Shown here: piece after piece, positions 46,518-64,000 of the stretch
Layout of the letters: each line of letters starts with the position of its first letter
Numbering within the stretch: the stretch's first letter is position 1
Source of the DNA: Chloroflexota bacterium
Lineage (GTDB): Bacteria > Chloroflexota > UBA11872 > VXOZ01
NCBI GenBank assembly: GCA_963663275.1
Contig: OY760183.1
Span: forward strand, 3,456,001-3,520,000
Direction of reading: 5' to 3'
DNA length: 64,000 nucleotides
The notes under the pieces: model-generated
The model's database searches: none
What the model was told of the DNA's origin: nothing
Seen by the model: the letters and a program-made list of their open reading frames with translations, nothing else
Made by a program: the position numbers and the translations under genes

Positions 46518-46610
46518 TTGCATCACGAGCGACTCAGGTGCTAGCATGCGCTATTGTGTCCGCTTGTTCCGCAGGGAACTCCGCAAGCGGTACTTTCCGG
46601 AAAGGGGGGC
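46518..46610 (+). promoter_or_regulatory. speD promoter and structured 5' leader
   Basis: TTGCAT-N18-TAGCAT; hairpin CCGCTTG...CAAGCGG; CTTTCCGGAAAG dyad overlapping SD. Confidence 0.4.
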
Positions 46611-46617
46611 TGCTTGA

Positions 46618-46993: not shown

Positions 46994-47028
46994 CATGAAC
47001 GGACTCTCCCCCCCGGACGCTCTGGTAC

Positions 47029-47925
47029 ATGGAGTACCTGACGCCTGACCTCGTGCAGGCATCCAGCGTCCGGCAGGTCATCTACGAAGGCGACACTCCC
47101 TATCAGCACGTGCAGGTGCTCGAGACCGGCCCCTTCGGCAGGATGCTGGTGCTGGACGGCAAGACGCAGTCCTCCGAGTCCGACGAATGGGTCTACCATG
47201 AGGCGCTCGTCCAGCCGGTGATGCTTGCGCACGCGGACCCCCGGCGCGTCATGGTCGCCGGCGGCGGCGAGGGCGCGACCATCCGGGAGGTGCTGCGGCA
47301 CGGCTCGGTCGAGGAGGTCGTCATGGTCGATCTCGACAAGGCCGTGGTCGACCTCTGCAAGGAGCATCTCCCTGAGCACCATCGCGGGGCGTTCGACGAC
47401 CCGCGCGTAACCCTGCTGCACGAGGACGCGCTGGCGTACCTCGAACAGCGGGAGACGCCGTTCGACGTCATCGTCATCGACGTGCCGGACCCGCTGGAGG
47501 GCGGGCCTGCGTACCTGCTCTTCACGGTGGAGTTCTACGAACTCGTGCGGGCGCGGCTCGCGCCGGACGGGCTGATGGTCGCGCAGTCCGGCCCCACAGG
47601 GCCCACGAACGTGCGCGAGGTCTTCACGGCGATCGCTCAGACGATGGGGCGGGTGTTCGACCACGCGTCCGGCTATCACGCGCACATCCCCAGTTTCGGG
47701 ATGACGTGGGGGTTCATCGCCTGCGGCGGCGCGGACGCCCCCGACCCCGGCGCGATGAGCGATGCGGAGGTGGACGCGCGCGTGCGCGAGCGCGTCGCAT
47801 CGCCGCTGCGCTTCTACGACGGCGCGGCGCACCGGGGGATGTTCGGCCTGCCGAAGTACGTGCGCGAGGCGGTCGCCGCGGAGACGCGCGTCATCACGCG
47901 CGACAACCCCATCTACGCGGTCTAG
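47029..47925 (+). CDS. speE: Polyamine aminopropyltransferase; true start possibly ATG 46995 across a C7 run
   Basis: LVLDGKTQS, YHEALV, GGGEGATIRE, FDVIVIDVPDP. Confidence 0.94.
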   Translation: MEYLTPDLVQASSVRQVIYEGDTPYQHVQVLETGPFGRMLVLDGKTQSSESDEWVYHEALVQPVMLAHADPRRVMVAGGGEGATIREVLRHGSVEEVVMVDLDKAVVDLCKEHLPEHHRGAFDDPRVTLLHEDALAYLEQRETPFDVIVIDVPDPLEGGPAYLLFTVEFYELVRARLAPDGLMVAQSGPTGPTNVREVFTAIAQTMGRVFDHASGYHAHIPSFGMTWGFIACGGADAPDPGAMSDAEVDARVRERVASPLRFYDGAAHRGMFGLPKYVREAVAAETRVITRDNPIYAV

Positions 47926-48070
47926 GCGCACCCGCCGGAGGTCGCCACAGACGCGGAGAAGGGGCGCAGCGCGCCCCTTCTCTACTCGCGGCCAGTTGCT
48001 CTCGCTTCAGGCGGGAGAGCCCGGGGAGGATCGGGCTCCCCCGCCACGGCTAGGAGCCGCCCTTCTTGCT

Positions 48071-48535
48071 TCAGGAAGCGACCGAGTCCGATGACGTTTC
48101 ACCGGAGTCTCCGCCTCTGTCCTTCCAGCCGTACCCCCAGGACCCGCCGCGCTTGCCGCCGTGGTGGCCCCGTCCGAAGCCGAACTTCTTGCCCCGTCCG
48201 TCCCCGGGGCCCAGCTCGGGCGTGCCCAGGTAGCGATCGAGGTACGCGTCCGCCTGCTCCTGCGTGATCTTGCCTTCCTCGACCATCGCCGCGAGCTTGT
48301 CGCGCAGCTGCTGCTCCCAGGCTGCCTTCCGCTCTGCCTGCAGTTCCTCTCTGGTCTCGTCCACCGCGGTCTGGAGCTCCTCCTGCCCGATGCCGAGCTT
48401 GCCCGCGAGTATCTCCACGAAGCGCGACACGGTGGAATCGTCGTCCGACTCGCTCTGGGCGAACGCTGTTCCTGCGATGGCTCCGGTCAGGAGCAGGGCT
48501 GTGAGGGCCGAAATGACTATCCACTTTCTGCGCAT
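48071..48535 (-). CDS. Exported hypothetical protein
   Basis: Signal peptide ending AFA; VEEGKITQEQAD; GGAGG RBS. Confidence 0.8.
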   Translation of the reverse strand: MRRKWIVISALTALLLTGAIAGTAFAQSESDDDSTVSRFVEILAGKLGIGQEELQTAVDETREELQAERKAAWEQQLRDKLAAMVEEGKITQEQADAYLDRYLGTPELGPGDGRGKKFGFGRGHHGGKRGGSWGYGWKDRGGDSGETSSDSVAS

Positions 48536-48698
48536 GGAATGCTGCCTCCTCGATTTGCGATTGCTGTTGTTCCGTAACGCGCGCTACCAGACACTACGCG
48601 CCGGGCCTCCGTGCGGATTCATCGTACCGGGCGGGTTCCCCGAAGCGCGCAGCGCTACCTCGTTGAAGGCGCAGTGCGGCGGGTGCATAGTTGACGGG

Positions 48699-49208
48699 AT
48701 GAACCCGATAGACCTGCTCATCCTCGTGCTGGTGGTCGGCGGCGGTTTCCTCGGCTGGGTGAACGGCGTCGTGAAATGGCTGTTCACCTTCCTGGGGCTC
48801 ATCGTCGGCGTCTTCGTCGCCAGCAGGCTCTACGGGACGCTCGACTGGGCCATCCCGCTGGTCGACAGCGACGGCCTGCGGCAGTTCATCGTGTTCATCC
48901 TCATCGTCGCCGCCGCGTCGATAGGGGGGTGGATGCTGGGACGAGCGGTCAAGAAGGCGTTGAGCATCCTGCTGATGGGGTGGGTCGACAGAGGCGCGGG
49001 AATGGCTCTGGGCCTGCTCGTGGGCCTGCTTGCCGGGTCTGCCGTCGCCCTGGCCGCGAGCACCGTGCCGTCCGATGGGGTGCGGCAGGCGGTCGAGGAG
49101 TCGCTTCTGGCGGCCACGCTCCTGGATGCGACCTCGTTCCTGCGCGGGCTCATGCCGTCCGAGTTCGACGTGAAGATTTCGTTGTTCGGCGGCGCCGGCC
49201 GCGCATAG
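48699..49208 (+). CDS. CvpA (colicin V production) family membrane protein
   Basis: MNPIDL...GWVNG, WVDRGAGMALG. Confidence 0.85.
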   Translation: MNPIDLLILVLVVGGGFLGWVNGVVKWLFTFLGLIVGVFVASRLYGTLDWAIPLVDSDGLRQFIVFILIVAAASIGGWMLGRAVKKALSILLMGWVDRGAGMALGLLVGLLAGSAVALAASTVPSDGVRQAVEESLLAATLLDATSFLRGLMPSEFDVKISLFGGAGRA

Positions 49209-49305
49209 CCCTGTGGCCGGTTAACGGACAGAGGTTGCCGTATGCTCCGCCGCGCTCTTATGATTTGAGCGTGCGGGCCTCTGAACGGACGGTGGGCCCG
49301 CTGGG

Positions 49306-49848
49306 GTGGACGCTCTGAGCGAGGCTGTTCTCATCCTGAACCAGAACTACGAGCCGTTGAACGTCTGCGGCGTGAGGCGGGCGCTGCTCCTTGTCCTGGG
49401 GCAGAAGGCGCAGCCCCTCGAGTTGGGTACCGGCGCGTACCACTCCGTGTCGCAGAACTTCCCCATCCCCTCGGTCATACGCCTGCTGTACATGGTGAAG
49501 CGGCCGCTCTTCACGCGCCGCCTCTCCCGCCGCGAGGTGTTCTGGCGGGACCAGTTCTCGTGCCAGTACTGCGGCAGGCAGACGCGGGAGCTGACGCTCG
49601 ACCACGTCGTGCCCCGCGTGCTGAACGGCCCGCACACGTGGGAGAACGTCGTGGCGGCCTGCGTGCCGTGCAACCATCGCAAGGCGGGGCGCACGCCCGC
49701 GCAGGCGAACATGCGCCTGCTGCGCGAGCCGTCGCCGCCGAGGGCGAACCCGTACTACCACCTGATGCACCGCAGCCTGCCCGACGAGTGGAGCATGTAC
49801 CTCCCGTGGATGGCGCAGCCGCGCCGACCCTTATCCCCTCTCCCTTGA
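49306..49848 (+). CDS. HNH endonuclease (McrA-like)
   Basis: LILNQNYEPL, RDQFSCQYCG, TLDHVVPR, WENVVAACVPCNHRK. Confidence 0.92.
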   Translation: MDALSEAVLILNQNYEPLNVCGVRRALLLVLGQKAQPLELGTGAYHSVSQNFPIPSVIRLLYMVKRPLFTRRLSRREVFWRDQFSCQYCGRQTRELTLDHVVPRVLNGPHTWENVVAACVPCNHRKAGRTPAQANMRLLREPSPPRANPYYHLMHRSLPDEWSMYLPWMAQPRRPLSPLP

Positions 49849-50892
49849 GGGGAGAGGGTCAGGGTGAGGGTGAACCAGCGAGGGGAGAGGGTCAGGGTGA
49901 GGGTGAACCAGCAGCGGCGCTTCCAGCATGAACACGTCCAGCGCGAGGCGGACGTTGGCGTTGCGCTCCAGCGCCTCGATGGTGCGGGTGACGTTCTGCG
50001 CCCACCGGACGACGCCGGCCGGTTGCAGGGCGCCCGCGTGCCGTTCCAGCACCTCCCGCCAGGAGAGGTTGGTGATGCTTGCGCCGTGCCCCTGCTGGAT
50101 GAGCATGACGTCCCGCAGCCAGCGCAGCCAGAGGAAGAGCTCCTCCCGGCCCGCGCCGCGGTCGCGGTCGATGCGCCGTGCGAGTTCGCCCGCGTAGGTG
50201 AACCGCTCCTCCAGCCCGCCATCGATGGCGTCCACGATCTGCTCCATCCGCTGGTGCACCGACGCGTAGAGCGTATCGTCTCCGGTTGCGGCGATGGCCC
50301 AGCCGATGCAGCCGCGCGAGAGGCGGGCGAGCACCTGCGCCTGCTCTGCGCTCACGCCGTGCTCCTCCTGCAGGACGCGCGCGACCTCATCCACCGGCAG
50401 GGGGCGGAAGTAGAGGGTCTGGCAGCGGGAGCGGACCGTCGGCAACTGGTTGTCCGCGCTCGTGCCGACGAGGATGAGCACCACGTCGTCCGGCGGCTCC
50501 TCCAGCACCTTGAGCAGGGCGTTGGCGGCGTCGCGGGTGAGGAGGTCGGCCTCGGTGATGACGAACACGCGGGTGCGTCCTTCGTAGGGGCGCAGGTGGG
50601 CGGAGTTGATGAGGTCGCGCACCGCGTCGATGCCGATGGACGCGGCATTCCCGCCGAGGTCGATGAGGCGCACGTCGGCGTGGTTGCCCTCGGCGATGCG
50701 GGTGCAGCTCGGGCAGACGCCGCACGGGGGCGTATCCGCGTCGCAGTTCAGGGCCTGTGCGAACTGGACGGCGAGGGTCGCCTTGCCCAGGTGCGCGGGG
50801 CCGGTGAAGAGGTAGGCGTGGTGGAGGCGGCTCTCCGCCAGTGAGCGTTCCAGGGTCTGAACGGGGAGCTGCTGGCCGTGCAGACGGAGCAT
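49831..50892 (-). CDS. holB: DNA polymerase III subunit delta'
   Basis: HAYLFTGP..GK, PCGVCPSC, ANALLKVLEEPP, TVRSRC. Confidence 0.93.
   Translation of the reverse strand: MLRLHGQQLPVQTLERSLAESRLHHAYLFTGPAHLGKATLAVQFAQALNCDADTPPCGVCPSCTRIAEGNHADVRLIDLGGNAASIGIDAVRDLINSAHLRPYEGRTRVFVITEADLLTRDAANALLKVLEEPPDDVVLILVGTSADNQLPTVRSRCQTLYFRPLPVDEVARVLQEEHGVSAEQAQVLARLSRGCIGWAIAATGDDTLYASVHQRMEQIVDAIDGGLEERFTYAGELARRIDRDRGAGREELFLWLRWLRDVMLIQQGHGASITNLSWREVLERHAGALQPAGVVRWAQNVTRTIEALERNANVRLALDVFMLEAPLLVHPHPDPLPSLVHPHPDPLPSRERG
49835..49912. repeat. REP-D with tandem duplication of its right arm, overlapping both convergent stop codons
   Basis: GAGGGGAGAGGGTCAGGGTGAGGGTGAACCAGC x2. Confidence 0.85.
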
Positions 50893-50895
50893 GGG

Positions 50896-52212
50896 TCAGA
50901 CGACGTCCTGCGCGATGAGGTCCTCGTACGATTCGCGGCGCCGCATCAGGGTCGCCGCGCCCTCCGACGCCATGACGATGGCGGGGCGGCCGTTCATGTT
51001 GTAGACGCTGGCCATGGAGGGGGCGTACGCGCCGGACGCGGGGATGGCGATGATGTCGTTCGCGCGCACGGGAGCGAGGGAGGCGTCGTGGATCAGTACG
51101 TCGCCGGACTCGCAGTACTTCCCGGCGATGGTGACGGTCTCCGTGGCTTCGTCGCCGGCGCGGTTGGCGACGTTGGCGATGTAGCGCGAGCCGTAGAGCG
51201 CGGGGCGGATGTTGTCGCCCATGCCGCCGTCCACGGAGACGTAGGTGCGGACGCCGGGCACCTCCTTGATGGCGCCGACGGTGTAGACGGCGACCCCGGC
51301 AGGGCCGGCGAGCGAGCGTCCGGGCTCGATGGTCAGCTCGGGCCGGGGCAGCCCGTTGGCCGTGCAGCCGTCCGTGAGCGCGCCGACGATGGCCTCGGCG
51401 TAGTCGTCTATCGCGGGGGGCTCGTCGTCCTCTGTGTAGGCGATGGCGAAGCCGCCGCCGGGACTGAAGCGGCGCATGTCGAGGCCGTATTCGCCCATGC
51501 GCGCCGCGAACCGCAGCACCCGCTCGATCGCCTCGGTGTACGGCTCCAGTTCGAAGATGGGCGAGCCGAGGTGGAAGTGGATGCCCTGCATGTCCAGGTT
51601 GGGCGCGGCCATCACCTGCCGGACCGCCTCCTCGGCGTCGCCGGTCTCGATGGGGAAGCCGAACTTGCTGTCGAGCACACCTGTGGTGGTGAGGCGGTGG
51701 GTGTGCGGGTCGATGGAGGGCGAGACCCTGATGAGGACGGGCTGCCTGCGTCCGACCGCGCCAGCCGCTTCGTTCAGCAGGCGCAGTTCGTGGAAGCTGT
51801 CTATCACGAAGGTCCCAACGCCCCAGGCGACTCCCTGTGCGATCTCCTCGGGCGTCTTGTTGTTGCCGTGGAAGTCGACGGCGGCGAGGTTGACGCCCGC
51901 GGCGCGGAGCACGGCGACCTCGCCGCCCGACACCACGTCGAAACCGAGTCCGAGGCCCGCGAGGTAGCGCGCGAGCGGGACGTTGATGAACGCCTTGCAG
52001 GCGTAGACGACGCGGCTCTCGGGGTAGCGCGAGCGGAAGGCGTCCAGGAAGCCCTCCGCCTGGTTGCGGAGCGTCGCCTCGTCGAACACGTAGAGGGGCG
52101 TGCCGAACTCGCGGGCGAGCGCGGTGACGTCGCAGCCGCCGACCTCGAGGTGGCCGTCATCGTTGACGGCGGTGGTGATGGGGAAGACTTTCGATTGCAG
52201 GGGGACGGACAT
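50896..52212 (-). CDS. lysA: Diaminopimelate decarboxylase
   Basis: FGTPLYV, YACKAF, HFHLGS, EPGRS, GKYCESGD. Confidence 0.95.
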   Translation of the reverse strand: MSVPLQSKVFPITTAVNDDGHLEVGGCDVTALAREFGTPLYVFDEATLRNQAEGFLDAFRSRYPESRVVYACKAFINVPLARYLAGLGLGFDVVSGGEVAVLRAAGVNLAAVDFHGNNKTPEEIAQGVAWGVGTFVIDSFHELRLLNEAAGAVGRRQPVLIRVSPSIDPHTHRLTTTGVLDSKFGFPIETGDAEEAVRQVMAAPNLDMQGIHFHLGSPIFELEPYTEAIERVLRFAARMGEYGLDMRRFSPGGGFAIAYTEDDEPPAIDDYAEAIVGALTDGCTANGLPRPELTIEPGRSLAGPAGVAVYTVGAIKEVPGVRTYVSVDGGMGDNIRPALYGSRYIANVANRAGDEATETVTIAGKYCESGDVLIHDASLAPVRANDIIAIPASGAYAPSMASVYNMNGRPAIVMASEGAATLMRRRESYEDLIAQDVV

Positions 52213-52361
52213 GGGGTTCTCCTGTGAGTGGTCGCGGGTTAAGTATGCCGCCTCGCGCCGCCGCGCGCCATCGGCGGGAGGGGTCCTCACCGCTCATGGC
52301 GACCCGTCGACTATCCCCCGCGCCCTTCGTCTCGACACACAGTGCAACCCCGGGACCGGGC

Positions 52362-53411
52362 TTAGTCGCCCATGGCCCCGCCGATGTCCCTGCGCTTGAA
52401 TATCCAGGAAGTCGCTGCAACGAAGAAGACGGTATATGCGAGGACGGTCACGAAGGCCTCGCTCGTTTCCGAAGAACCTTCGCCGACCGGCGTGGCTGTC
52501 CAGGCGCGGAAGCCCTGAATCAGAAGCCGGTCCGCGGCATTGGCAAGCGTGTCGCTGAGGTTGAGAAGCGGCGCGGCGATGGATTCGACGATGAAATACC
52601 CGACTGAGAGCGCTATCCCCAGACCGCGAGAAGACGTAAGCACGGTGGCGAAGGCGCTGAGCGCTATGAATGGCAGGAATCCATAGATGCTCTTGAACGA
52701 GATGATGGCCACGTCGGACCACTTACCGGCATCGACGAGCCCTCCCGTCTCGTCCGGGGAGAGCAGACCGGCTGCCAGGCTGGACGCAACGGATACCGCT
52801 GCGATGACGGTGAGTACGCCGGCGCATAGGCACAGGAGCAGAAGGAGTTTCGCGGAGAGGAATCTCCACCGTCCGATGCCTCCGGCGAGGACCGTCCGCA
52901 GGGTGCCCCACCCGTATTCAGATCCCACGAGGGAAGCCGTGAGGATCATGATGAGCAGGAGGCCTATCGCAACGGGGCCCAGTGAAGAAAACCCGGAGAT
53001 GCTTGCGGTCATGCTGTTCGGCAGTGTGAAACCCCTGCGAAGCTCCTCGGCGGATTGGAAGTTGTCGCATGTCCCGTCGGCAAGCCATTCGTCCACATTC
53101 TTCCAGTACTCCTGCAGCCGCTCTTCAGGGATCTGATCAAGGCCTGTTGGGACTCGGCCCCTCACCGCATCCGCGCAGGTCATCGTCACCGAGACCTCCC
53201 GGCCTTCCTCTTCCCATGAGACGCTGTAAGAAGCGAAGGCGCCGGTGACGACCTGTTGCACCGTGTCGTTGTGGTAGGCCAGATAGTTGGTCCAGATGCC
53301 CATTTGCGAGATCAGCACGGCTACCGCGAGCAGGACCCACGGCATCCGGAGCCGCCGGAGCTTGAACCACTCCCATCTTGTGAGACGGAGGACTTCCTGT
53401 ATCGGCATCAT
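52362..53411 (-). CDS. ABC-2 type exporter permease
   Basis: SEYGWGTLRTVL, FLSAK, FKRRDI; multiple TM segments. Confidence 0.85.
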   Translation of the reverse strand: MMPIQEVLRLTRWEWFKLRRLRMPWVLLAVAVLISQMGIWTNYLAYHNDTVQQVVTGAFASYSVSWEEEGREVSVTMTCADAVRGRVPTGLDQIPEERLQEYWKNVDEWLADGTCDNFQSAEELRRGFTLPNSMTASISGFSSLGPVAIGLLLIMILTASLVGSEYGWGTLRTVLAGGIGRWRFLSAKLLLLLCLCAGVLTVIAAVSVASSLAAGLLSPDETGGLVDAGKWSDVAIISFKSIYGFLPFIALSAFATVLTSSRGLGIALSVGYFIVESIAAPLLNLSDTLANAADRLLIQGFRAWTATPVGEGSSETSEAFVTVLAYTVFFVAATSWIFKRRDIGGAMGD

Positions 53412-54535
53412 GCGTTCTCCGGTCTTTCTTCCCGGGCGTTGGTGACTTCGAGGAAGTATCGTTCCAGGGCGCCGCGACCCGGGTTTGCCTCGATCACGTA
53501 GACGCCCGAGCGTCCGAGGGCCGTGGAGACCAGCGCTGACCTGTCGCTTGGAGCGGATACGACGATTACGCCGTTCTCCGTCTGCACGTCTTCGATCCAG
53601 TCCAGCTCGGAGAGGATTGCCACGGCCTTCTCGTCGTCGGTGGTACTGAGCCGGATCTGATTTCCAGATTGGAGGATCTCTGAAACGCCCCCTTGGGCGA
53701 TGAGCGTTCCCTTGGACATGATGGCCACGCTGTCGCACACCTGCTCGACCTCATTGAGCAGGTGACTCGCCATGAGCACCGTTCTCCCGTCTGCACAGAG
53801 TTCGCGGATCAGGTGGCGGACTTCGGCCATGCCCGCAGGGTCCATGCCATTCGTGGGTTCATCGAGGAAGAGCACCTCAGGGCCGCCGAGAAGGGCAAAG
53901 GCAAGGCCCAGGCGCTGCTTCATGCCGAGCGAGTACGTGCTGAAGCGTTTGTCCCCGCTGTCTGCGAGCCCGACCCTGTCGAGCAAGCCGTCGATGTCTT
54001 CCGGTGCGCCCCGTTCGAAGATGCCTTGGAAGTAGAGAAGGTTCTCTCGACCGGTGAGGTAGGGGTAGAAGGATGGATACTCGATGATCGCGCCCACGCG
54101 GCGCAGGGACTCTTCGAGCCCGGCGGTAGAGCCGAAGAGGCTGAAGGTGCCGGAGGTCGGCCGCACCAACCCAAGCAGCATCCCCATCGTGGTTGTCTTC
54201 CCTGATCCATTCGGACCAAGCAGCGCGAAGGCGTGGCCGTGCGGGACGGACATTGAGAGGCCGTCCACAGCCGCGATACTCCCGTAGACCTTGGTAAGCG
54301 CCTCGGTCTCTATGATGGGCCTGTCCTTGCTCATGCCGAACCCTCCTGCGTGTTCCCTGATAGCAGAAGCCGCAAGGTCGAAGAGCAACTGCGTCCATAT
54401 GACCAGCCTTCGCAGACCTCTGCCGTCGCAACGCATCCTGTCGCGGAAGAACTGCAGCATCAGCTCTCCGTACTCTCGCCGGAATTCCCTCGGGTACACC
54501 ACGAGGAGCACCCGGTACACGCCTTCAGAGAACAT
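53408..54535 (-). CDS. ABC exporter ATP-binding protein with N-terminal YPxxFRxxYG extension
   Basis: GPNGSGKTT, YSLGMKQR, LDEPTNGMD. Confidence 0.9.
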   Translation of the reverse strand: MFSEGVYRVLLVVYPREFRREYGELMLQFFRDRMRCDGRGLRRLVIWTQLLFDLAASAIREHAGGFGMSKDRPIIETEALTKVYGSIAAVDGLSMSVPHGHAFALLGPNGSGKTTTMGMLLGLVRPTSGTFSLFGSTAGLEESLRRVGAIIEYPSFYPYLTGRENLLYFQGIFERGAPEDIDGLLDRVGLADSGDKRFSTYSLGMKQRLGLAFALLGGPEVLFLDEPTNGMDPAGMAEVRHLIRELCADGRTVLMASHLLNEVEQVCDSVAIMSKGTLIAQGGVSEILQSGNQIRLSTTDDEKAVAILSELDWIEDVQTENGVIVVSAPSDRSALVSTALGRSGVYVIEANPGRGALERYFLEVTNAREERPENA

Positions 54536-54908
54536 GTCGGATCCCTCGCCTCCGGACGACATTCGCCTGCCTTGTCCTTGCAGTGCGGGCGAGTTGCTCT
54601 AAACGGACCACCTCGGCATCGAGGACGCGGGCGCCCAAGTCGGTCAGGCGGTAGTAACGTCGACGTTCGTCGTCTAATGCGGGGTCTGGCCGTTCGGAGC
54701 TCTCTTCGATCAGCCCGGCCTTCAGCATCTGCTTGACGGCCCCGTACAGCGTGCCCGGACCCATGGTGACCGCGCCGCCGGTGAACGCTTCGATCTCCTT
54801 CATGATGGCGTAGCCGTGATTGTCCCCGGTGGCCAGGGCGAGCAGGATGTGCAACTGAGAGGTCGGCAAGGGGAGCATCTCAGGGGTCAGTCGAGTCGGC
54901 GTTGTCAC
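54525..54908 (-). CDS. PadR family transcriptional regulator
   Basis: HGYAIMKEI, GPGTLY, RRRYYRLT. Confidence 0.92.
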   Translation of the reverse strand: MTTPTRLTPEMLPLPTSQLHILLALATGDNHGYAIMKEIEAFTGGAVTMGPGTLYGAVKQMLKAGLIEESSERPDPALDDERRRYYRLTDLGARVLDAEVVRLEQLARTARTRQANVVRRRGIRHVL

Positions 54909-55060
54909 TGTGGTCCTGCCAGGAGTTCCCGTTCGTTCACTGCAACGAAGTATAACGTCTGCCGCTATACCGTCTATCGATATAGCATACACCGATATAT
55001 ATGTCAATGCCCTCCTCATGGAGGGATAATGCCCCCGACAAGTTGCCGCCAGGAGAAGCC

Positions 55061-55609
55061 ATGCCACGCATCGAGATGATTACCGACAAGGGCCAGATCC
55101 CCGAGGACCGGCACGCCGAGTTCGACGCGATCGTCGAAACGCTTCACGGGGTGCGCGGGCCTTTCGCCGTCCTCATGCACAGCCCCGGCCTCGCCCGGAA
55201 AGTCATGGAGGCCGGCGCGCAGGTCCGGTTGGGCTCGACGCTCAGCCCGGTCGAGCGCGAACTGGCCATCATCGCCGTCGCCAGGGAGAAGGACGCGACC
55301 TACGAGTGGGCCGCGCACGTGAGAGCCGGACGCGCCGCCGGCATGCGGGAAGAGGCCATCGAAGCCGTCAGGCACAGGCAGGACACCGGCGGCCTTGAAG
55401 AGGACGAGCGTGACATCATCGAGTTCGTACGGCAACTCCTGCGGAACAACAAGGTCGAGCAAGACCTCTTCGACGCGCTGGAGGGCCGCAAGGGCGTCCG
55501 ATGGCTCGTCGAACTCGCTGCCACCGTCGGTCAGTACCAGTACATCTCGGCGATCAATACCGCGTTCGGCGTCGTTGCGGCCCCGGACGCGGACCAGCTC
55601 CCCGTCTGA
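55061..55609 (+). CDS. Carboxymuconolactone decarboxylase/AhpD-like protein
   Basis: GPFAVLMHSP, RELAI, YEWAAH. Confidence 0.88.
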   Translation: MPRIEMITDKGQIPEDRHAEFDAIVETLHGVRGPFAVLMHSPGLARKVMEAGAQVRLGSTLSPVERELAIIAVAREKDATYEWAAHVRAGRAAGMREEAIEAVRHRQDTGGLEEDERDIIEFVRQLLRNNKVEQDLFDALEGRKGVRWLVELAATVGQYQYISAINTAFGVVAAPDADQLPV

Positions 55610-55704
55610 GGCGCTCCGGCCCCGCTCAACATGACATGACTCGTCATGCGGCGCCGTGCTGCGTTGCGCTAGAATCCCGCCATCCGTTCGAGGGAGGAAC
55701 GAAC

Positions 55705-56763
55705 ATGAAGGCAGCGGTGATGCAGGGCGTCGACTGGGACCTCGTGATCGAGGACTTCGAGACGCCGGACGTTGACGACGACGACGTGCTGCTCGAAGTG
55801 ACGGCGTGCGGCGTCTGCCACACGGACCTGAAGGTGCAGGACGGATCGATACCCACTTCGCTGCCCGCCGTGCTGGGGCACGAAGTCTCCGGCGTGGTCG
55901 TGGGCACGGGCAAGAACCAGCGGGACCACTTCAAGGACGGCGACAGCGTGACGGTGGGCATGCGCTTCCGCTGCGGGCGCTGCGAATACTGCATGACCGG
56001 GCTGTCGAACCTCTGCCAGCAGATGCCGCTCGGCTCGCCGTACCGCAGGGCGGGCGGGGAGACGGTGACGCGCTGGAACGTCGGCGGCTTCACGCAGCTG
56101 CTGTCGGTGCCGGCGTACATGGTGTTCCACCTGCCGGACGGCGTGGGGCTGGAGGAGTCGTGCATCGTGGGCTGCCGGGTGACGACCGCCTACAACGCGG
56201 TGAAGAACGGCGCGCACCTCGCGCCGGGCGAGTCGGCGATGGTCATCGGGTGCGGCGGCGTGGGGCTGAACATCATCCAGATGCTGCGGCTGTTCGGCGC
56301 GTACCCCATCGTCGCGGTGGACGTGGTCGGCAGCAAGCTGGAGGCGGCGATCTCCTACGGCGCGTCCCACATCGTGAACGCGGCCTCCGACGACCCGGTG
56401 GAGGCGACGAAGGAGATCACGAAGGGCGGCGCGCGCAAGACGTTCGAGGCGATCGGCAACCCGGTGACCGCCGACCAGATCGTGCGGGCGACGCGCCCGA
56501 CGGGCACGGCCACCATCGTCGGCGCGATGCCGCCGGGCCCCATCACCATCAACGACTCGCGCTTCCCGTTCAAGGAGATCAAGGTGACGGGCGTGGCGAT
56601 GCGCCGGACGAGCGACGTGACCGAGGTGCTCGACCTCGTGTCGCAGGGTCGCATCGAGCTCGGCTCGTTCATCACGAAGAGGTACGGGTTCGAGCAGATC
56701 AACGAGGCGATCGAGGACGTGCACCACGGCAACGTGCTGATGGGCATCACGCTGTGGAATTAA
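55705..56763 (+). CDS. Zn-dependent alcohol dehydrogenase (MDR)
   Basis: GVCHTD, LGHE, CGRCEYC...C, GCGGVG. Confidence 0.93.
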   Translation: MKAAVMQGVDWDLVIEDFETPDVDDDDVLLEVTACGVCHTDLKVQDGSIPTSLPAVLGHEVSGVVVGTGKNQRDHFKDGDSVTVGMRFRCGRCEYCMTGLSNLCQQMPLGSPYRRAGGETVTRWNVGGFTQLLSVPAYMVFHLPDGVGLEESCIVGCRVTTAYNAVKNGAHLAPGESAMVIGCGGVGLNIIQMLRLFGAYPIVAVDVVGSKLEAAISYGASHIVNAASDDPVEATKEITKGGARKTFEAIGNPVTADQIVRATRPTGTATIVGAMPPGPITINDSRFPFKEIKVTGVAMRRTSDVTEVLDLVSQGRIELGSFITKRYGFEQINEAIEDVHHGNVLMGITLWN

Positions 56764-56782
56764 GACCAGGGCCAGGGCTGCG

Positions 56783-56808
56783 GGATTCCCGCCTGCGCGG
56801 GAATGACG
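56783..56808 (-). repeat. REP-B palindrome
   Basis: GGATTCCCGCCTGCGCGGGAATGACG. Confidence 0.88.
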
Positions 56809-56838
56809 GGTAAGATTGAACGGCGAAAGGAGGGCGGC

Positions 56839-57636
56839 ATGACACAGGCGTTCGGAGCGTACGGGCTAGGCACGGCGAAAGGCATCGGGGAGCACCTCGC
56901 CTTCCTGGAGCCGACGCCCAAGCGGATCCGCGCGACGTTCGGCGGCGAGACGATCGTCGACAGCAGGCACGCGGTCCTCATGTACGAGACGCGGCACCAG
57001 CCGGTCTACTACTTCCCGATGGCCGACGTGCGGATGGACCTGCTGGAGGAGACCGACAAGAGCACCTTCTGACCGATCAAGGGAGACGCTCAGTACTGGA
57101 GCGTCAAGGTCGGCGACCGGGTGGAGGAGAACGCGGTCTGGGCATACCAGGAGCCGTTGGAAGGCTGCCTGGACGCGCGGGACTACGTGGCGTTCTACTG
57201 GAACAGGATGGACGGCTGGTTCGAGGAGGAGGAAGAGGTCTTCATCGGCCCGAAGGACCCGTACACGCGCGTCGACTGCCTGCGAAGTTCGCGCCACGTG
57301 CGCGTGGAGTTGAACGGCGTCACCGTCGCGGAGACGGACAGCCCCGTGATGCTGCTGGAGACCGGGCTGCCGCACCGCTACTACATCCCCGGCAAGGACG
57401 TGCGGAAGGAGCTGCTGCGCCCGAGCGAGCGCGTGCTGGGCTCCACGTACAAGGGGCTGGCGGGCTACTTCCACGCGGACGTGGGCGGCGAGACGTTCGA
57501 GGACGTGGCGTGGACGTACCGCGACCCGACCGCGGAGTGCGCGAAGATCACGGGGTACGTCTGCTTCCCGCAGGGCAAGGCGGACGTGTACGTGGACGGC
57601 GAACTGGAGCCGAAGCCCAACACGAGGTGGGATTAG
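56839..57636 (+). CDS. Tandem DUF427 protein with in-frame TGA at codon 78; probable selenocysteine
   Basis: ORFs 56803-57072 and 57121-57636 are in the same frame; read-through gives STF-U-PIKGDAQYW at the TxCPxKGxAxY motif. Confidence 0.85.
57073..57113 (+). promoter_or_regulatory. Candidate bacterial SECIS hairpin
   Basis: Lower stem CCGATC/GGTCGG, upper stem GACGCTC/GAGCGTC, loop AGTACTG starting 19 nt after TGA. Confidence 0.7.
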
Positions 57637-57642
57637 CGGGCC

Positions 57643-58494
57643 CTACTCCTCGAACTCGCCGCGCAGTTCGCGGTAGAGGCGGGACATGAGCGGCGGGAGG
57701 CGGTCCTCCTGCCGTCCCCACCCGGAGAACGGGCCGAGGTCGAGCGACGCCAGCGCCTCCTCCTCGGAGTGGCCCTGCGCGAAACTGCGCTTGCCCTGCT
57801 CCGTGATGCGCAGCAGGCACTCGCGCATCTCGGCCATGTCGGCGCGCGTCCCCAGCGGCCCGTGCCCCGGCACCACGACGTCGCACTCGACCTGCGCCGC
57901 ACGGTCGGCGGTGTCCGCCCACGCGAGCGGGAAGCCGTCGCGCGCGTTCGGGATGTACCGGTGGAAGGAGAGGTCGCCCGCGAACAGCACGCCCTCCGTC
58001 GGCAGGTAGACGGCGATGTCGCCGCGCGTGTGCGCTCTGCCGAAGAAGCGCAGCTCGACGGGCCGCTCGCCGAGATGGAGCGTGAGGGTGTCGCTGAACG
58101 TGAGGTTGGGGGGCGTCTGCGGCAGGTCGCGCCACTCCTCGTAGAGCGCGGGGTAGAGGTCGCGCAGGAACGCGCGGTGCGTATCCCACTCGGCGGCGAG
58201 GTCGTCGCGGCAGGTGTCGTGTGCGACGATGGGCGCCTGCGGCATGAGCGCGTTGCCGAAGAGGTGGTCGCCGTGCCAGTGCGTGTTCACGACGTAGCGC
58301 ACGGGTTTGTCGGTCACGCGGCGCGCCTCGGCGAGCAGCCGCTCCGCGAGCGCGGGCGTCATGAGCGTGTCGATGATGACGACGCCCTCCTCCTCGACGA
58401 GGAAGCCCGCGTCCGTCGCGCCGCCCGCCTGGATGAATGCGTACGCGCCGGGGGCGACCTCGATGGCGCCGGTCTGGTAATCGCCCTGCGTCAT
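57643..58494 (-). CDS. MBL-fold metallo-hydrolase (cyclase-like)
   Basis: NTHWHGDH, AHTRGD, FAGDL, VPGHG. Confidence 0.9.
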   Translation of the reverse strand: MTQGDYQTGAIEVAPGAYAFIQAGGATDAGFLVEEEGVVIIDTLMTPALAERLLAEARRVTDKPVRYVVNTHWHGDHLFGNALMPQAPIVAHDTCRDDLAAEWDTHRAFLRDLYPALYEEWRDLPQTPPNLTFSDTLTLHLGERPVELRFFGRAHTRGDIAVYLPTEGVLFAGDLSFHRYIPNARDGFPLAWADTADRAAQVECDVVVPGHGPLGTRADMAEMRECLLRITEQGKRSFAQGHSEEEALASLDLGPFSGWGRQEDRLPPLMSRLYRELRGEFEE

Positions 58495-59432
58495 GCCCGC
58501 AACTCCGGCACGACCTTGGCGCTCAGCAGGTCGACGGTGCGCTGTACGTCGGCGAGGCTTCGCGCCTGCGGGAGGAAGACGAAGTGGCTCACGCCCGCCT
58601 CCGCGTACTCCGCGAGCGTCGCTGCGATCTGCTGCGGCTCGCCGGTGAGCGCGCCGCGCTTCTCCGCACCCGCGAGGTCCGGCTCGCTCCGCAGGTCGAC
58701 GAGCACCCGGAGCGAGAGCGCGACCGCGTTGTCGCCGCGTCCGTGGGCCGCCGCCTCCTCGTTCATGGCGCGGTGCGCCTCCGCGAGCGCCTGGGGCGTC
58801 GTGGCGAACAGCGGCGGGAACCAGGCGTCGCCGTACTTCGCGGCGCGGCGCATCACCGGTTTGCTGTGGCCGCCGACCCAGATGGGCGGGTGGGGCGTCT
58901 GCGCGGGGTGCGGGTAGGACTCGACGCCCTGCACGTCGAAGAAACGCCCCTCGAAGCGCACCTCCGGCTCCGTCCAAGCCGCGCGCACGAGGCGGAGGCT
59001 CTCGTCGAGCACAGCGCCGCGCCGGTCGAAGTCGAGGCCGAGCGCGTCGAACTCCTCGCGGAGCCAGCCCGCCGCGACGCCGAGGATGCTCCGTCCGCCG
59101 GAGAGCACGTCCAGCGTCGCCGTCGTCTTGGCCGCCGCGAGGGGGTGGCGCAGGGGGAGCAGCGTGACCGCCGTGCCGAGCTTCACCCGCGACGTGAACC
59201 CCGCCACCCAGGCGAGCGTCGTGAACTGGTCGAGGAAGGGCAGCCCGGGCGCGATGAGGAACTCGCCGTCGGCGCTGTAGGGATAGGTGGAGGTGTGGCT
59301 GGTCGGGAGCACGACGTGGTCGGCTGCCCAGACGGAGTCGAGGCCGGACGCCTCGGCCTGCCCGGCGACGAGCCGCACGGCTGAGGGGTCGTCCATGCCG
59401 ATGGTGGGGAGCGACACGCCGAACTCAATCAT
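58491..59432 (-). CDS. LLM class F420-dependent oxidoreductase
   Basis: SVWAADHVV, ATLDVLSGGR, GWLREEF, PPIWVGG. Confidence 0.92.
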   Translation of the reverse strand: MIEFGVSLPTIGMDDPSAVRLVAGQAEASGLDSVWAADHVVLPTSHTSTYPYSADGEFLIAPGLPFLDQFTTLAWVAGFTSRVKLGTAVTLLPLRHPLAAAKTTATLDVLSGGRSILGVAAGWLREEFDALGLDFDRRGAVLDESLRLVRAAWTEPEVRFEGRFFDVQGVESYPHPAQTPHPPIWVGGHSKPVMRRAAKYGDAWFPPLFATTPQALAEAHRAMNEEAAAHGRGDNAVALSLRVLVDLRSEPDLAGAEKRGALTGEPQQIAATLAEYAEAGVSHFVFLPQARSLADVQRTVDLLSAKVVPELRA

Positions 59433-59506
59433 GGGGTGCATGGTACAGGACGAGGCGTCGCCCGCGTATACTTGCGCGGCATCCTTGACCGTACGGAGGC
59501 GCACCG

Positions 59507-60238
59507 ATGGCGCTCGACCCGAGAGACTTTCTCGCCGAGATGCAGCAGTTGCAGGAGCGGAAGCACAGCCGCAAGCACCCGCTGTTCGACATGATCGAGG
59601 AGGGCAGGCTCACGCGCCCGCAGCTCAACGGCTTCATCAAGCAGTTCTACCTGCTCTTCCCCAAGCCGTTCCCGAAGCCGATCGCGGCGATGTTCGCCCG
59701 CGCTCCGCAGGACACGGAACTCGAGCGCATGTGGTTCGAGAACCTCTCGGAGGAGGCCGAGGGCGGCGAGACCGGCACCGCGGGCCACAAGGAGCTGTAC
59801 ATCCGCTTCGCCGAGGCCGCCGGCATCCCTCGCGACGAACTCAACGCGACCCAGCCGCTGCCGGAGACGCGGGGCCTGCTCAACTGGCGCGAGTTGCTCA
59901 TCGGCCAGCGCTCGTGGCTGGAGCTGTACGCGTCGCAGGGGTTGGCGCTGGAGGGCACGGCCAGCGGTCGGATGCACCGCGTGGTCAACGGCCTCGTCGA
60001 CCACTACGGCTTCGAGCGCGACAGCGACGACATCCTGTACTGGACGCTGCACATGTCGGTCGACGAGGAGCACATGAAGGTGGGCCCGTACGTCATTGAG
60101 AAGTACGCGGTGAGCGACTTGGAACAGCAGTCGGTGCGGGAGTCGCTGAACGCGACGCTCGACATCTTCTGGCTGGTCTACGACGGCATCGTGCGCGCCT
60201 TCGTGGACGAGGACCCGCTGTACGAGGAGTGGCGGTAG
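59507..60238 (+). CDS. Heme-oxygenase-like diiron enzyme (CADD/PqqC/TenA-like)
   Basis: HPLF, ENLSEE..G...H, YWTLHMSVDEEH. Confidence 0.82.
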   Translation: MALDPRDFLAEMQQLQERKHSRKHPLFDMIEEGRLTRPQLNGFIKQFYLLFPKPFPKPIAAMFARAPQDTELERMWFENLSEEAEGGETGTAGHKELYIRFAEAAGIPRDELNATQPLPETRGLLNWRELLIGQRSWLELYASQGLALEGTASGRMHRVVNGLVDHYGFERDSDDILYWTLHMSVDEEHMKVGPYVIEKYAVSDLEQQSVRESLNATLDIFWLVYDGIVRAFVDEDPLYEEWR

Positions 60239-60249
60239 GGGGTACCCCC

Positions 60250-61432
60250 TTACGTTCGGGTGGGGGCGGCGCCGGGGGCGGTCCAGCGGTGGGTGGGCTG
60301 CTTCTGCCAGACGTCCTCGTCGATGTTGGTGTCGACGATGGGGTGGTCCGGGTCGCGGATGACGCCCAGCGGGTCCTCGCCGTGCGCGACACGCTCCATC
60401 TGCTCGAACATCGTGCGGCGCAGCAGGACGACGCCCCGGTCGGAGTACGAGAGGTGCTCGACGGAGCGGTCGGTGACGGGGCCCTGCGTCTCCCATGCCA
60501 TGTGATCCTGCGAGAGCACGGAGCGGCGGTCGTACCACGCCTCCGGGTGGCTCTTGTCCGCAGGCTCCTTGTACGTCTCGATGTACTCGACGGGTGGGTC
60601 CCACGTCGTCTCGTCCGGCTGGCCGTCCTCGTTCAGCCAGAAGTTGATGTGGACGTGCCAGGTGTGGGTGTCGTCAATCGGCGTGCGGAACTGCGTGCTC
60701 GGCCCCTGGCGGAGGATGGACGGGAAGAGGACGGGGTGCTCGTCCACGACGCCGTTGGTGTAGGTGCGCTTCTTCATCAAGCCGTAGCCGGTGAGGTAGA
60801 ACTCGAACGAGTCCACGTCGTCGGTGAAGCCGCGCGTCGTGTTGACGGGCTCGCGCTGGCCGCGCGCGTAGTACTCCTGGTGGAGTATCTGGAGGTGCGC
60901 CGGGTCCATGGAGTTCTCCATGGCCTGGAACCAGTTGCAGTCCAGCACGGGGTGGGACGTTTATCTTGCGGCGTCCGTCCTCCCGCACGAGCGTGTCGAA
61001 CGGGGTGAAGACGGGCGCGGGCCTCGGGCCCATGTACGCCCAGACGACGCCGAGGTAGACCTTGCAGTCGTAGGCGGGCTGCTTGACGGAGCGCATAATC
61101 GCCTCGTTCTTCTCGGGCGGCGTTTCGAGGATGTTGCCCTCGGTGTCGTAGAGCCAGCCGTGGTAGGCGCAGGCGATGCCGCGCTCCTCGACGCGCCCGT
61201 AGACGAGCGACGCGCTGCGGTGCGCGCAGTGGTCGGCGAGCAGCCCCCAGCGCCCGGACTTGTCGCGGAAGATGACGAGGTCCTCGCCGAGGATGCGGAC
61301 AGCCTTCGTCGGGCGCTCGTCCGTGACCTCGGACGCGATGGCGATGGGGTGCCAGTAGCGCCGGAGCAGTTCGCCCGCGGGCGTGCCGGGGCCGACGCGC
61401 GTGAGTTTCTCGTTGTCCGCTTTCGTCAGCAT
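60250..61432 (-). CDS. Rieske non-heme iron oxygenase alpha subunit; +1 frameshift near 60955 (likely error)
   Basis: VGPGTPAGELLRRYWHP, CAHR...CAYHGW, then CNWFQAMENSMDPAH in shifted frame. Confidence 0.9.
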
Positions 61433-61455
61433 GACGCTCTTCCTCCCGTGCCGGG

Positions 61456-62826
61456 CTAGACGTTCTGGCCCACCATCTTGCGGCGCTCGATGGAGTCCGC
61501 GCCGCCCTCGATGCCGCGCTGGGTCAGGATCGGGCTGTACTTGCTCGCCATGCCCTGGCGCCGGATGCCCTTCTGTCCCTCCCCGCGCTCCTCGTACTGC
61601 TCGTTCCGGCGAGACTTGTGCTCCGTGTCCATGCCGAGGTAGACGTTGGACGCCGGGTCGCGGAACGTGTTGATGGGGTCGCCGCCGTCCTCGACGATGC
61701 GGATGTTCTCCTCCAGCATGCGGCGGAACATGATGATGCCCTTGTCCGAGCGCCCGAGCGACTCCTTGGTGCGGTCGGCTATCGCGCCCTGCGTTATCCA
61801 CGCGGCGACGTCCTGCGCGGAGTTGGAGTCGAGTATCTCGAAGCGGACACGCCCGTCCTCGGCGAGTTGGATGAGCGGCGGGAAGAAGAGCGGCACGTCC
61901 TCGTCGCGCTGCTCGGGGTCGTCCGCCGACAGCTTCGGGTGGCACATCACCCACCAGTGGCCGGTGTGCGTGTCGTCCAGCGGCACGCGGATCTGGAACG
62001 ACGGGCCGACGCCTGCGCCCATGCCGCCCCCGCGCCTGCCGTCCCACGTGTCGATCGCGGTGCCGCTGCCGCCCTGGCGGAGGAAGTAGGGGAAGACGAT
62101 GGGGTGGCCCTGCGCCCACTCGCCGTCCTCGTAGCTGCCGCCCTTGACGAGCCTGCGCTTGTAGATGCCGTACTGGAACTTGTCGAAGCCGATGCGCTCG
62201 TTCTCGTAGCGCTTGCGGACCTTGTCGCCCTCGCCGCGCATCTCCAGGATGTAGTTCGCCCACTCGCCGTGCAGCCACTCGGAGTGGACGGGGTCGAGTG
62301 AGTTCTCCTGGCACTGGAGCCAGTTGCTCGGCAGTTCCGTGTATCCGATGTCCCGCACGACGTTGTCGAGCGCGAACACGTCCCAGTTGGGGAGGAGCGG
62401 CACGGGGGCCGGGCCGAGGTAGGCGAAGATGAGGCCGGCCTTCACCTCCAGCGGGTACGCCTTGATGCGCACCTTGTCCTTGAAGCGGTTGTCCGGGGCC
62501 TCGGTCTCCTCGTAGGGCTGTTCGAGGCAGCGGCCCGTCTCGTCGAACATCCAGCCGTGGTAGGGGCAGCGGATGCCGTCGTCGGTGGGAATGCCGTAGA
62601 CCATGCCCATGCGGCGGTGGGGGCAGTAGTTGTCCACGAGGCCGAAGACGCCCTGGTTGCTCTTGTAGAGGATGAGGTCCTCGCCGAGCAGTTTGATGGG
62701 CTTGGTCGAACGGTCATTCATCATGGCGACGGCGGCGATGGGGTGCCAGTAGCGGCGCATCAGTTCGCCGGTCGGCGTGCCGGGACCTACTCTCGTCAGG
62801 CGGTCGTTCTGTTCAGCGGTCAGCAT
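61456..62826 (-). CDS. Rieske non-heme iron oxygenase alpha subunit (phthalate 4,5-dioxygenase/LigX-like)
   Basis: CPHR...CPYHGW, NWLQCQENSLDPVHSEWLH, QDVAAWITQG. Confidence 0.93.
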   Translation of the reverse strand: MLTAEQNDRLTRVGPGTPTGELMRRYWHPIAAVAMMNDRSTKPIKLLGEDLILYKSNQGVFGLVDNYCPHRRMGMVYGIPTDDGIRCPYHGWMFDETGRCLEQPYEETEAPDNRFKDKVRIKAYPLEVKAGLIFAYLGPAPVPLLPNWDVFALDNVVRDIGYTELPSNWLQCQENSLDPVHSEWLHGEWANYILEMRGEGDKVRKRYENERIGFDKFQYGIYKRRLVKGGSYEDGEWAQGHPIVFPYFLRQGGSGTAIDTWDGRRGGGMGAGVGPSFQIRVPLDDTHTGHWWVMCHPKLSADDPEQRDEDVPLFFPPLIQLAEDGRVRFEILDSNSAQDVAAWITQGAIADRTKESLGRSDKGIIMFRRMLEENIRIVEDGGDPINTFRDPASNVYLGMDTEHKSRRNEQYEERGEGQKGIRRQGMASKYSPILTQRGIEGGADSIERRKMVGQNV

Positions 62827-62859
62827 CAGCGTTCCTCCCTCGGGTTGCTGTCTTTCTGC

Positions 62860-63954
62860 TTATCCTGCGGTACCGGCGAGAACGGGGGACTCCACGGTGA
62901 TGCCGTAGAAGTCCAGGGCGTTCTGCCCCATGATGTCGTCGATCACGTTCGGCGCGAGGCCGCCCTCCTCCTTGATGATGCGCATCGCCTCGATCTCGCT
63001 CGACTGGTCCTGGTGGCCGTAGTCGGTGCCGATGAGGATGTGGCGGTGGTTCACGTACTTGAGCACGTCGGGGAGGTTGTCGTCGGTCTGGGCGGTGACC
63101 CAGATGTTGTACGCGCCGAGCACATCCTCCTCCAACTCGCGGCCCCGCGTCTCCAGCCTGCGGCGCAGGTCGTGGATGGCGTAGGGCAGCCACTGGCTGC
63201 TCGCCTCGATGTAGCCCCAGCGCAGGTCCGGGAACTTCTTGGGCGTGGCGGTGGTGACGAGCTGGTGGAAGCTGGCGACGGACATGAGGCGCAGACCGCC
63301 GAACGTGCCGCCGATGCCGTCCTTCGCCATGAGGCCGCGGATGTAGGCGTTGGAGTTGCCGATGTGGATGGCGATGGGCTGGTTCAGCCGCGAGGCCTCC
63401 TCGTAGACGGGGTAGAAGTACTCGTCTATCAGCAGCCGCTCGTCCTCGATGGTGCGCATCGTGACGCCGCAGGCGCCGTGCTCCGCAGACCAGCGCAACT
63501 GCTCCAGCGCCTCGTCCATCGTGGCGAGCGGGAGGATGGACGTCCACCGGAGGCGCCCGTTGCTCTGCTGCCAGATGTCGGCGAGCCAGCGGTTGTAGCT
63601 CTTGGCGAGGGCGACCTCGGTGTCCGGGTTCTCGCACATGCGCCCGATGTACATGGTGGGGTAGAGCACCTGCACGTCTATGCCGAGTTCGTCCATGTGG
63701 GCGACGCGTCCGGGGATGTCCTCCATGTAGCGCTTGGAGTCGTCCGTCACCATGTTGCGCTTCACCTTGTCGGAGAGGCCGAAAGCGGCGACGGGCCCGC
63801 GCGCGCGGCCGCGTATCTCGCCGTCTATCTTCCAGAACTTGGCGCCGGTGCCGTCGTCCACCACCTGCGGGCGGTGCTTCTCATCGCCGGGGTCCATGTA
63901 GTCCCAGGTCTGCTCCGTCTCGACCACGTGCGCGTCAGAGTCGATAACCGGCAT
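62860..63954 (-). CDS. Amidohydrolase family 2 protein
   Basis: IDSDAHVVE, MDELGIDVQVLYPT, YNRWLAD, GTDYGH. Confidence 0.92.
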   Translation of the reverse strand: MPVIDSDAHVVETEQTWDYMDPGDEKHRPQVVDDGTGAKFWKIDGEIRGRARGPVAAFGLSDKVKRNMVTDDSKRYMEDIPGRVAHMDELGIDVQVLYPTMYIGRMCENPDTEVALAKSYNRWLADIWQQSNGRLRWTSILPLATMDEALEQLRWSAEHGACGVTMRTIEDERLLIDEYFYPVYEEASRLNQPIAIHIGNSNAYIRGLMAKDGIGGTFGGLRLMSVASFHQLVTTATPKKFPDLRWGYIEASSQWLPYAIHDLRRRLETRGRELEEDVLGAYNIWVTAQTDDNLPDVLKYVNHRHILIGTDYGHQDQSSEIEAMRIIKEEGGLAPNVIDDIMGQNALDFYGITVESPVLAGTAG

Positions 63955-64000
63955 GGCTGCCCTCCTTGCCGCTCCCGTTTCCGGCGTCCGCTCCGGAGCG

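Follow-up and report, generated by a model that had tools for sequence, protein, structure and literature searches.

The window analysed here is a stretch of 64,000 nucleotides (nt) from a Chloroflexota bacterium (positions 3,456,001 to 3,520,000 of contig OY760183.1, assembly GCA_963663275.1), and its subject is one gene on the forward strand whose reading frame is crossed by an internal UGA codon. Coordinates refer to the window unless the contig is named. By direct reading, the frame is open from the ATG at 56839 to the TAG at 57634-57636, and its sole interruption is the TGA at 57070-57072. Translation with genetic code table 11 breaks it into two pieces, an 89-residue open reading frame (ORF) that ends at this TGA and a 171-residue ORF that begins at the GTG at 57121. 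When the TGA is translated as selenocysteine (Sec, U), a single product is obtained, which runs DKSTF-U-PIKGDAQYWSVKVG around and beyond codon 78, with the motif context DKSTF-U-PIKGDAQYWSV. The features of the gene are as follows.

56829..56833, + strand: Shine-Dalgarno-like GGAGG, 5 nt before the ATG, from sequence
56839..57636, + strand: complete coding sequence of a tandem DUF427 protein, 265 codons plus TAG, Sec at codon 78, translated with TGA as U
56926..57201, + strand: DUF427 domain 1 (residues 30-121), a beta-tent with T-x-U-P-I-K-G-D-A-x-Y-W, from the PF04248 match, the AlphaFold (AF2) model and beta-tent matches over model residues 24-143
57070..57072, + strand: UGA, almost certainly read as selenocysteine (residue 78), from TGA in 48/48 sequences and Cys in 13/13 stop-free homologues
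57073..57113, + strand: hairpin of 41 nt resembling a selenocysteine insertion sequence (SECIS), from pairing across 31 distinct sequences and synonymous constraint
57298..57570, + strand: DUF427 domain 2 with a degenerate motif, from the second PF04248 match; best structural match 3djm, Z 18.3, model residues 140-253
57439..57456, + strand: domain-2 motif G-S-T-Y-K-G, Ser202 in place of Cys, from comparison with homologues

Two stretches of the 265-residue product match DUF427, Pfam family PF04248, which Pfam now abbreviates NTP_transf_9 (E 6.3e-65; 215.5 bits, where 22.1 is required). Each domain alone scores 104-110 bits against this family, and no NCBIfam model matches the read-through protein. 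A sequence-only reading of this DNA had described one continuous frame interrupted by the TGA, a tandem DUF427 arrangement and a second domain that has lost its Cys. The frame read directly over 56839-57636 and the two Pfam matches bear out the first two points. The third holds as well: domain 2 reads LGSTYKGLAGY, with Ser at the position where stop-free homologues and three of the Sec loci (L054, L062 and L063) have Cys. The protein begins with MTQ and ends with RWD in 46 full-length loci.

A scan for related loci with one genome per species returned 53 loci. TGA stands at the identical codon in 46 full-length loci and in one N-terminal fragment; one further fragment ends short of the site, and in five distant homologues (34-46% identity) both the stop and the domain-1 motif are missing. 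Together with the window, TGA is thus found at codon 78 in all 48 sequences that cover it (the window plus 47 Dehalococcoidia/SAR202 loci), which share 56-96% protein identity and the context ST[FHRT]-U-PI[KR]G[DG]A[QR]YW. Within these 47 loci, L060 is identical to L061, and one metagenome-assembled genome contributes L022, L067 and L070. In the taxonomic family of one carrier genome (G061), a full-length match containing a single TGA is present in 42 of 57 genomes (52-96% identity); the remainder comprises two partial matches with TGA, 12 genomes with only stop-free homologues and one with none. Where homologues are stop-free and closer (52-56% identity), Cys is aligned with codon 78 in 13/13 cases, within the motif T-x-C-P-x-K-G-[DEQ]-A-x-Y. 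The search for homologues with TGA on the Cys position, which the sequence-only reading had proposed as a test, therefore came out in its favour. UGA at codon 78 is, as judged from these comparisons, almost certainly read as selenocysteine.

The same locus can be seen as a pseudogene whose TGA is a nonsense mutation or a sequencing error. Table 11 does split the frame, and in public protein sets close relatives are represented only by the 171-residue C-terminal piece (8 of the best 120 clusters, e.g., P0002 at 92% identity). A nonsense mutation would have to be shared by 48/48 sequences and by 42 of 57 genomes of a family, and one systematic assembly error is excluded by the 56-96% identity among the related assemblies. 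If the TGA were an error, the sequencing reads could be expected to carry TGC or TGT, as the earlier reading had noted; a sponge-metagenome DNA contig from public runs (56779-57503) and metatranscriptome contigs from two studies (56869-57233 and 56935-57313) all bridge the TGA with no difference listed at the site, 105 lesser differences being unlisted. In run X18 the RNA contigs either stop at 57096 or start at 57087, and none of them bridges the UGA with 31 letters on both sides. We consider a pseudogene scarcely credible.

Selection on the two sides of the codon bears on this point and on a second alternative. The ratio of nonsynonymous to synonymous polymorphism (pN/pS) has values of 0.36 over codons 1-77, 0.16 over the 16 codons that separate the TGA from the GTG at 57121, and 0.31 over the remainder of the gene, a pattern which indicates purifying selection on both flanks of the TGA. 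Such selection throughout the gene would exclude a pseudogene and a split gene alike. The split gene has a simple form, in which UGA terminates and two products are made, a 77-residue N-terminal peptide and the 171-residue protein started at GTG 57121. This GTG-started ORF does exist and is listed by databases. If two products were made, however, the 16-codon stretch from TGA to GTG would go untranslated, although it is the most constrained of the gene and encodes the DUF427 core motif PIKGDAQYW; the split would also interrupt the beta-tent of domain 1 halfway. Two separate products are very improbable on this evidence. A general reassignment of TGA can be set aside as well, since TGA is the ordinary stop of 5 of 14 Pfam-supported ORFs nearby.

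A two-stem hairpin directly 3′ of the UGA, with its loop 19 nt away and G at the second loop position, had been proposed from the letters of the window, and all of these elements were located. The lower stem pairs 57073-57078 with 57108-57113. The upper stem as originally drawn has 7 bp (57085-57091 with 57099-57105) and encloses the loop AGUACUG (57092-57098), which starts 19 nt past the UGA and has G in second position. Pairing was examined in an alignment of 31 distinct versions of 57067-57120. The model with a 6-bp lower stem, a 7-bp upper stem and a 7-nt loop leaves 93.8% of cells paired, with U57090-A57100 failing in 11/31 sequences, and was rejected; a model with a bulged A fits all of them. 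In this second model, obtained with RNAalifold, an 8-bp upper helix is formed by 57085-57092 and 57097-57105, A57100 is bulged, the loop is GUAC (57093-57096) or GUAU, and 248 of 248 cells are paired over the 31 distinct sequences. Counted from the U of the UGA, the G-U of the loop is at a distance of 24-25 nt.

Changes within the upper helix keep the pairing. One-sided changes turn U-G into C-G (11 sequences) and, at two places, A-U into G-U (7 sequences and 1 sequence). A double change from C-G to U-A occurs in L060 and L063, where the change on the 3′ side costs a Val-to-Ile replacement. In the maximum-likelihood tree L063 stands at the base of the inner clade of Sec loci described below and L060 inside it (support for the place of L060 88/83), so the double change probably arose twice. 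The lower stem is looser overall; a double change from C-G to U-A is seen at one of its pairs (2 sequences). The check for a conserved hairpin that had been suggested with the original proposal thus found conservation with compensatory changes. Synonymous constraint is the stronger signal compared with covariation. Among 46 distinct genes aligned by codon, the lowest synonymous diversity of any 10-codon window is 0.14, at codons 81-90; an overlapping window reaches 0.21 and all other windows listed lie at 0.27-0.48. The codons of Gln85 (CAG), Ser88 (AGC) and Val89 (GTC) never change in the alignment. Folding energy was dropped as evidence for the hairpin, as it is no better than that of shuffles in this GC-rich DNA. 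The hairpin signal comes from comparison with relatives, i.e., conserved pairing, suppressed synonymous change and compensatory changes, and not from stability.

The genes for making and inserting selenocysteine, which the sequence-only reading had named as a further check, were all found in the genome of the contig: selA (558 bits, cut-off 268), selB (367 bits, cut-off 242), selD (352 bits, cut-off 125) and, for selC, a tRNA-SeC with anticodon tca. In each of the five other carrier genomes tested, selA and selB likewise exceed the cut-off. The selD gene of the contig's genome (G000:C1:3051010-3051993, - strand, locus L014) has an in-frame TGA at its catalytic Cys (DCAG-U-AGK), so that selenophosphate synthetase would itself be a selenoprotein there. 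The recoding mechanism is canonical. SelA and SelD would make the charged tRNA(Sec), the 41-nt hairpin after the UGA would act as the SECIS and recruit SelB with Sec-tRNA(Sec) to the ribosome, and UGA codon 78 would be recoded to Sec by this ordinary bacterial route, as its conservation suggests.

Read-through in other systems can be favoured by hairpins that follow a stop codon. It is thus conceivable that UGA is read as an ordinary amino acid (e.g., Trp or Cys, by a near-cognate tRNA) under stimulation by the hairpin, with SelB and selenium uninvolved, and the indirect nature of the support for selenium speaks for this reading. We regard it as quite improbable: selA and selB are present in 6/6 carriers tested, the contig's genome included, UGA falls exactly on an invariant Cys in the classical Sec/Cys pattern, the place of the hairpin and the G-U at the start of its loop fit the general bacterial SECIS pattern, and TGA is a normal stop nearby. 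Taking these lines together, we put at roughly 0.9 the probability that codon 78 is a genuine selenocysteine codon followed by a conserved SECIS hairpin; the gene as a whole very probably specifies a selenoprotein of 265 residues composed of two DUF427 domains, each a beta-tent.

Several observations weigh against the selenocysteine interpretation. Support for selenium in the protein is entirely indirect. The lower stem of the hairpin is imperfect, with the pair 57075-57111 unpaired in 10/31 sequences. At -18.6 kcal/mol (z = -0.47), the 61-nt fold is matched or exceeded in stability by 53 of 200 shuffles. Covariation is modest, the observed score being reached in 11-13 of 500 shuffles and only two pairs having double changes; this is due to the fact that the element hardly varies. 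The contigs from RNA libraries may derive from DNA. The gene neighbourhood gives no functional clue beyond close relatives. The gene is present in 0 of 60 relatives of the contig's genome, and the Sec machinery of that genome may come from an organism other than that of the window. As a consequence, the support drawn from the machinery rests mainly on selA and selB in the five related carriers.

The last two points are connected to the origin of the window. With the exception of a short repeat, 16/16 same-genus genomes lack 55700-59500. Positions 1-20000 and 44001-64000 of the window are syntenic with, and 84-95% identical in nucleotides to, genomes of another family (G061, G073 and G085). At the selB locus the contig shares 73% identity and synteny with its own genus; the match to G061 and G073 covers just part of the locus, at 69% identity. 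Tetranucleotide deviation has z of 2.7-3.9 in every 20-kb bin of contig positions 3,400,001-3,520,000, and the flanking bins examined are near 0. The window, with the last ~130 kb of the contig (about 3,400,001 to the end at 3,531,182), probably belongs to another lineage than the rest, by a chimeric join or a large recent transfer. The absence of the gene from the relatives of the contig's genome is explained by this foreign origin of the window and not by rarity of the gene. Since the related carriers have their own Sec machinery, the selenoprotein interpretation does not depend on the choice between chimera and transfer.

The gene shares the main properties of known bacterial selenoprotein genes, with E. 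coli fdhF as the prototype and the selD of the contig's genome as a further example: an in-frame UGA on the Cys of homologues, a hairpin directly 3′ of it with a bulged base and G-U starting a small loop, and the presence of selA, selB, selC and selD. The spacing of the loop G-U is close to that of G23/U24 in the fdhF SECIS. It differs from fdhF-type selenoproteins in belonging to another protein family, and no hairpin sequence in common with the predicted hairpin after the selD UGA was seen.

With regard to novelty, the sequence-only reading did not count DUF427 among the classical selenoprotein families, and the inventories we consulted agree. DUF427/PF04248 is absent from the family table in the accessible part of a 2026 review (PMC13188914), and DUF427 is absent from the supplements of deep-Sep (PMC12013277) and of the Global Ocean Sampling (GOS) study (PMC2398784). 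A literature search returned no relevant paper joining DUF427 with a selenoprotein and, by titles and the starts of abstracts, none on its selenium recoding; nothing joined selenoprotein with SAR202, and NTP_transf_9 gave only unrelated work. BSepDB, in the portion available, gathers previously reported selenoprotein families, and the group is already listed there as rich in selenoproteins (BSepDB Table 2); its family list lay outside this check. Within these inventories, BSepDB families aside, DUF427 is almost certainly an addition to the bacterial selenoprotein families, judging by the comparisons above. DUF427 is widespread and its function is unassigned, and a Sec/Cys pair in it points to a reactive residue and to chemistry. 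Public annotation of the gene is wrong as it stands, giving a truncated protein of 171 residues where at least 42 species-level genomes of one marine/sponge-associated Chloroflexota family would encode the full selenoprotein. The value of the finding lies in this corrected annotation as well as in the pointer to the reactive residue of DUF427.

It is informative to compare the Sec form with its Cys relatives. The Cys tandem DUF427 proteins, e.g., of Rubrobacter and other Rubrobacteraceae, have the same two-domain layout and similar length (264-289 residues, 52-58% identity) and the same T-x-C-P-x-K-G-x-A-x-Y motif, for which the protein of the window has U in place of C. They differ in having Cys in domain 1 and in keeping Cys in domain 2 (C-P-Y-K-G), whereas the Sec proteins have Ser in domain 2 except at three early-branching loci. 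In the maximum-likelihood tree (41 rows, 12 of them Sec), all 12 Sec rows group in a single clade (100/100), which is nested among Cys forms. Within it, L054, L062 and L063 branch first and still have C-P-Y-K-G in domain 2, and the inner Sec clade (99/96) has Ser there. Because the Sec clade is nested among Cys forms and its early branches retain the domain-2 Cys, the tree indicates a single replacement of Cys by Sec in the Dehalococcoidia/SAR202 lineage, with loss of the domain-2 Cys afterwards. Such a loss would leave a pseudo-dimer with one active site. A stop-free tandem paralogue (~46% identity; L068:3001-3714 and L069:3001-3714), with similar matches in most carriers of the family of G061, has the opposite layout, domain 1 being without the Cys motif and domain 2 having C-A-Y-K-G-E-A. 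As this paralogue too has one site, one-site tandem DUF427 proteins are not unusual. Among the Sec loci, L061 is titled Rhodospirillaceae, and its protein and the 90 nt around its TGA are identical to those of L060 (SAR202); the L061 contig is probably mis-binned.

Recoding within DUF427 may extend beyond this clade. DUF427 is found in 96 of 301 sampled genomes of the phylum, one unpublished genome (G361) being counted among them, and a TGA lies inside a DUF427 match in five of the 301. The four besides the Sec-tandem form were read and hold five genes. L094 is a long single-domain DUF427 gene with TGA on the same Cys position (T-U-P-F-K-G), L097 has two adjacent DUF427 genes on one contig (T-U-P-W-[RK]-G), and L095 and L096, from two genomes of one genus, have a form of ~95 residues (T-U-G-W-K-G). 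A hairpin is predicted after each TGA folded among the L094-L097 genes. For the family at large, one protein search gave 4051 matches.

The structure of the protein was modelled with AlphaFold (AF2; predicted local distance difference test 89.7, predicted template modelling score 0.84). In the model, residue 78 is the last of strand 69-78, from which a turn leads to strand 82-91, and it lies inside the only strongly conserved motif of DUF427, T-x-C/U-P-x-K-G-x-A-x-Y. By sequence the only solved relative is 3DJM (E 2.5e-13), the DUF427 protein of Rhodobacter sphaeroides, in which T-A-C-P-L-K-G-E-A-S-Y-Y is aligned with the query motif. The fold matches too (Foldseek E 7.3e-9; VIA-align Z 18.3, root mean square deviation 2.0 over 113 residues); 3DJM differs in being a single domain with Cys in the motif. 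Placement of DUF427 in the beta-tent fold, without a zinc site, is reported in the part available of Lupas et al. 2015 (PMC4287342). Other proteins of this fold also match the model with VIA-align: Mis18/yippee (Z 9.3 and 8.0), YPEL5 (6.6), the RIG-I/MDA5 C-terminal domain (6.4), cereblon with its CULT domain (6.0), human MsrB1 (5.9, over model residues 24-133), Mss4 (4.8), TCTP (4.5) and Gfa (4.2), where Z mostly lies below 8, a range that may reflect shared arrangement alone and says nothing on function.

Among these proteins MsrB (methionine-R-sulfoxide reductase B) deserves attention, as human MsrB1 is a selenoprotein and shows that the beta-tent fold can carry a catalytic Cys or Sec. The protein of the window differs from MsrB in having no CxxC pair and no significant sequence similarity to it: PF04248 is its sole Pfam match at E <= 0.01, and there is no NCBIfam match. 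Sec/Cys pairs typically mark cysteines with a catalytic redox function. As Sec replaces an invariant Cys here, Sec78 is taken to be the reactive centre, redox-active or nucleophilic, and the conserved Cys position of DUF427 is likely a reactive centre in the family, with a catalytic redox or nucleophile role suggested by the Sec/Cys pair. A more specific proposal, which we offer tentatively and consider unlikely as it stands, is that DUF427 is an unrecognised Cys/Sec-dependent beta-tent oxidoreductase, a distant analogue of MsrB, in which T-x-C/U-P-x-K-G would attack an oxidised sulfur or selenium small molecule; in the SAR202 tandem, one Sec site would be so reactive that the second decayed. 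The lead for small molecules of this kind comes from a 2026 survey, in whose Table 1, the part available, COG2343/DUF427 is co-encoded with ergothioneine/selenoneine-type synthases at 5.7% (PMC13674229). If the proposal were true, candidate substrates of DUF427 would be a sulfoxide, a selenoxide or an oxidised thio- or seleno-imidazole. A link to ergothioneine was tried for the present gene and rejected, as no EgtB-type synthase was over the cut-off in the contig's genome and none was found in the 11 neighbourhoods scanned.

Upstream of the gene, on the same strand, lie a CMD/AhpD-like gene and a Zn-dependent alcohol dehydrogenase gene, and downstream, in convergent orientation, a metallo-beta-lactamase-fold gene and a luciferase-like monooxygenase gene. 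Gene order around the DUF427 gene holds only in close relatives: the alcohol dehydrogenase is directly upstream in 16 of 47 loci by tblastn and in 2 of 11 more distant loci by Pfam. A function based on an operon was considered and rejected, as the other distant loci have unrelated neighbours and no operon logic. The spacer between the alcohol dehydrogenase and the DUF427 gene holds one further feature.

56783..56810, no strand assigned: palindromic dispersed repeat resembling repetitive extragenic palindromic (REP) elements, 28 nt, arms ATTCCCGC / GCGGGAAT

This repeat lies outside the recoding signal. It has 27 copies (at most 3 mismatches) in the contig, seven of them in its last 131 kb; within the window, further copies lie near 4406, 15044 and 32978. 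Many copies occur in same-genus genomes and in related loci, and depth at 56783-56810 reaches 2838 in a sponge metagenome. Elsewhere in the window, the ORFs of an ABC-2 permease (52362-53738, - strand) and an ABC ATPase (53408-54562, - strand) overlap by ~330 nt as listed.

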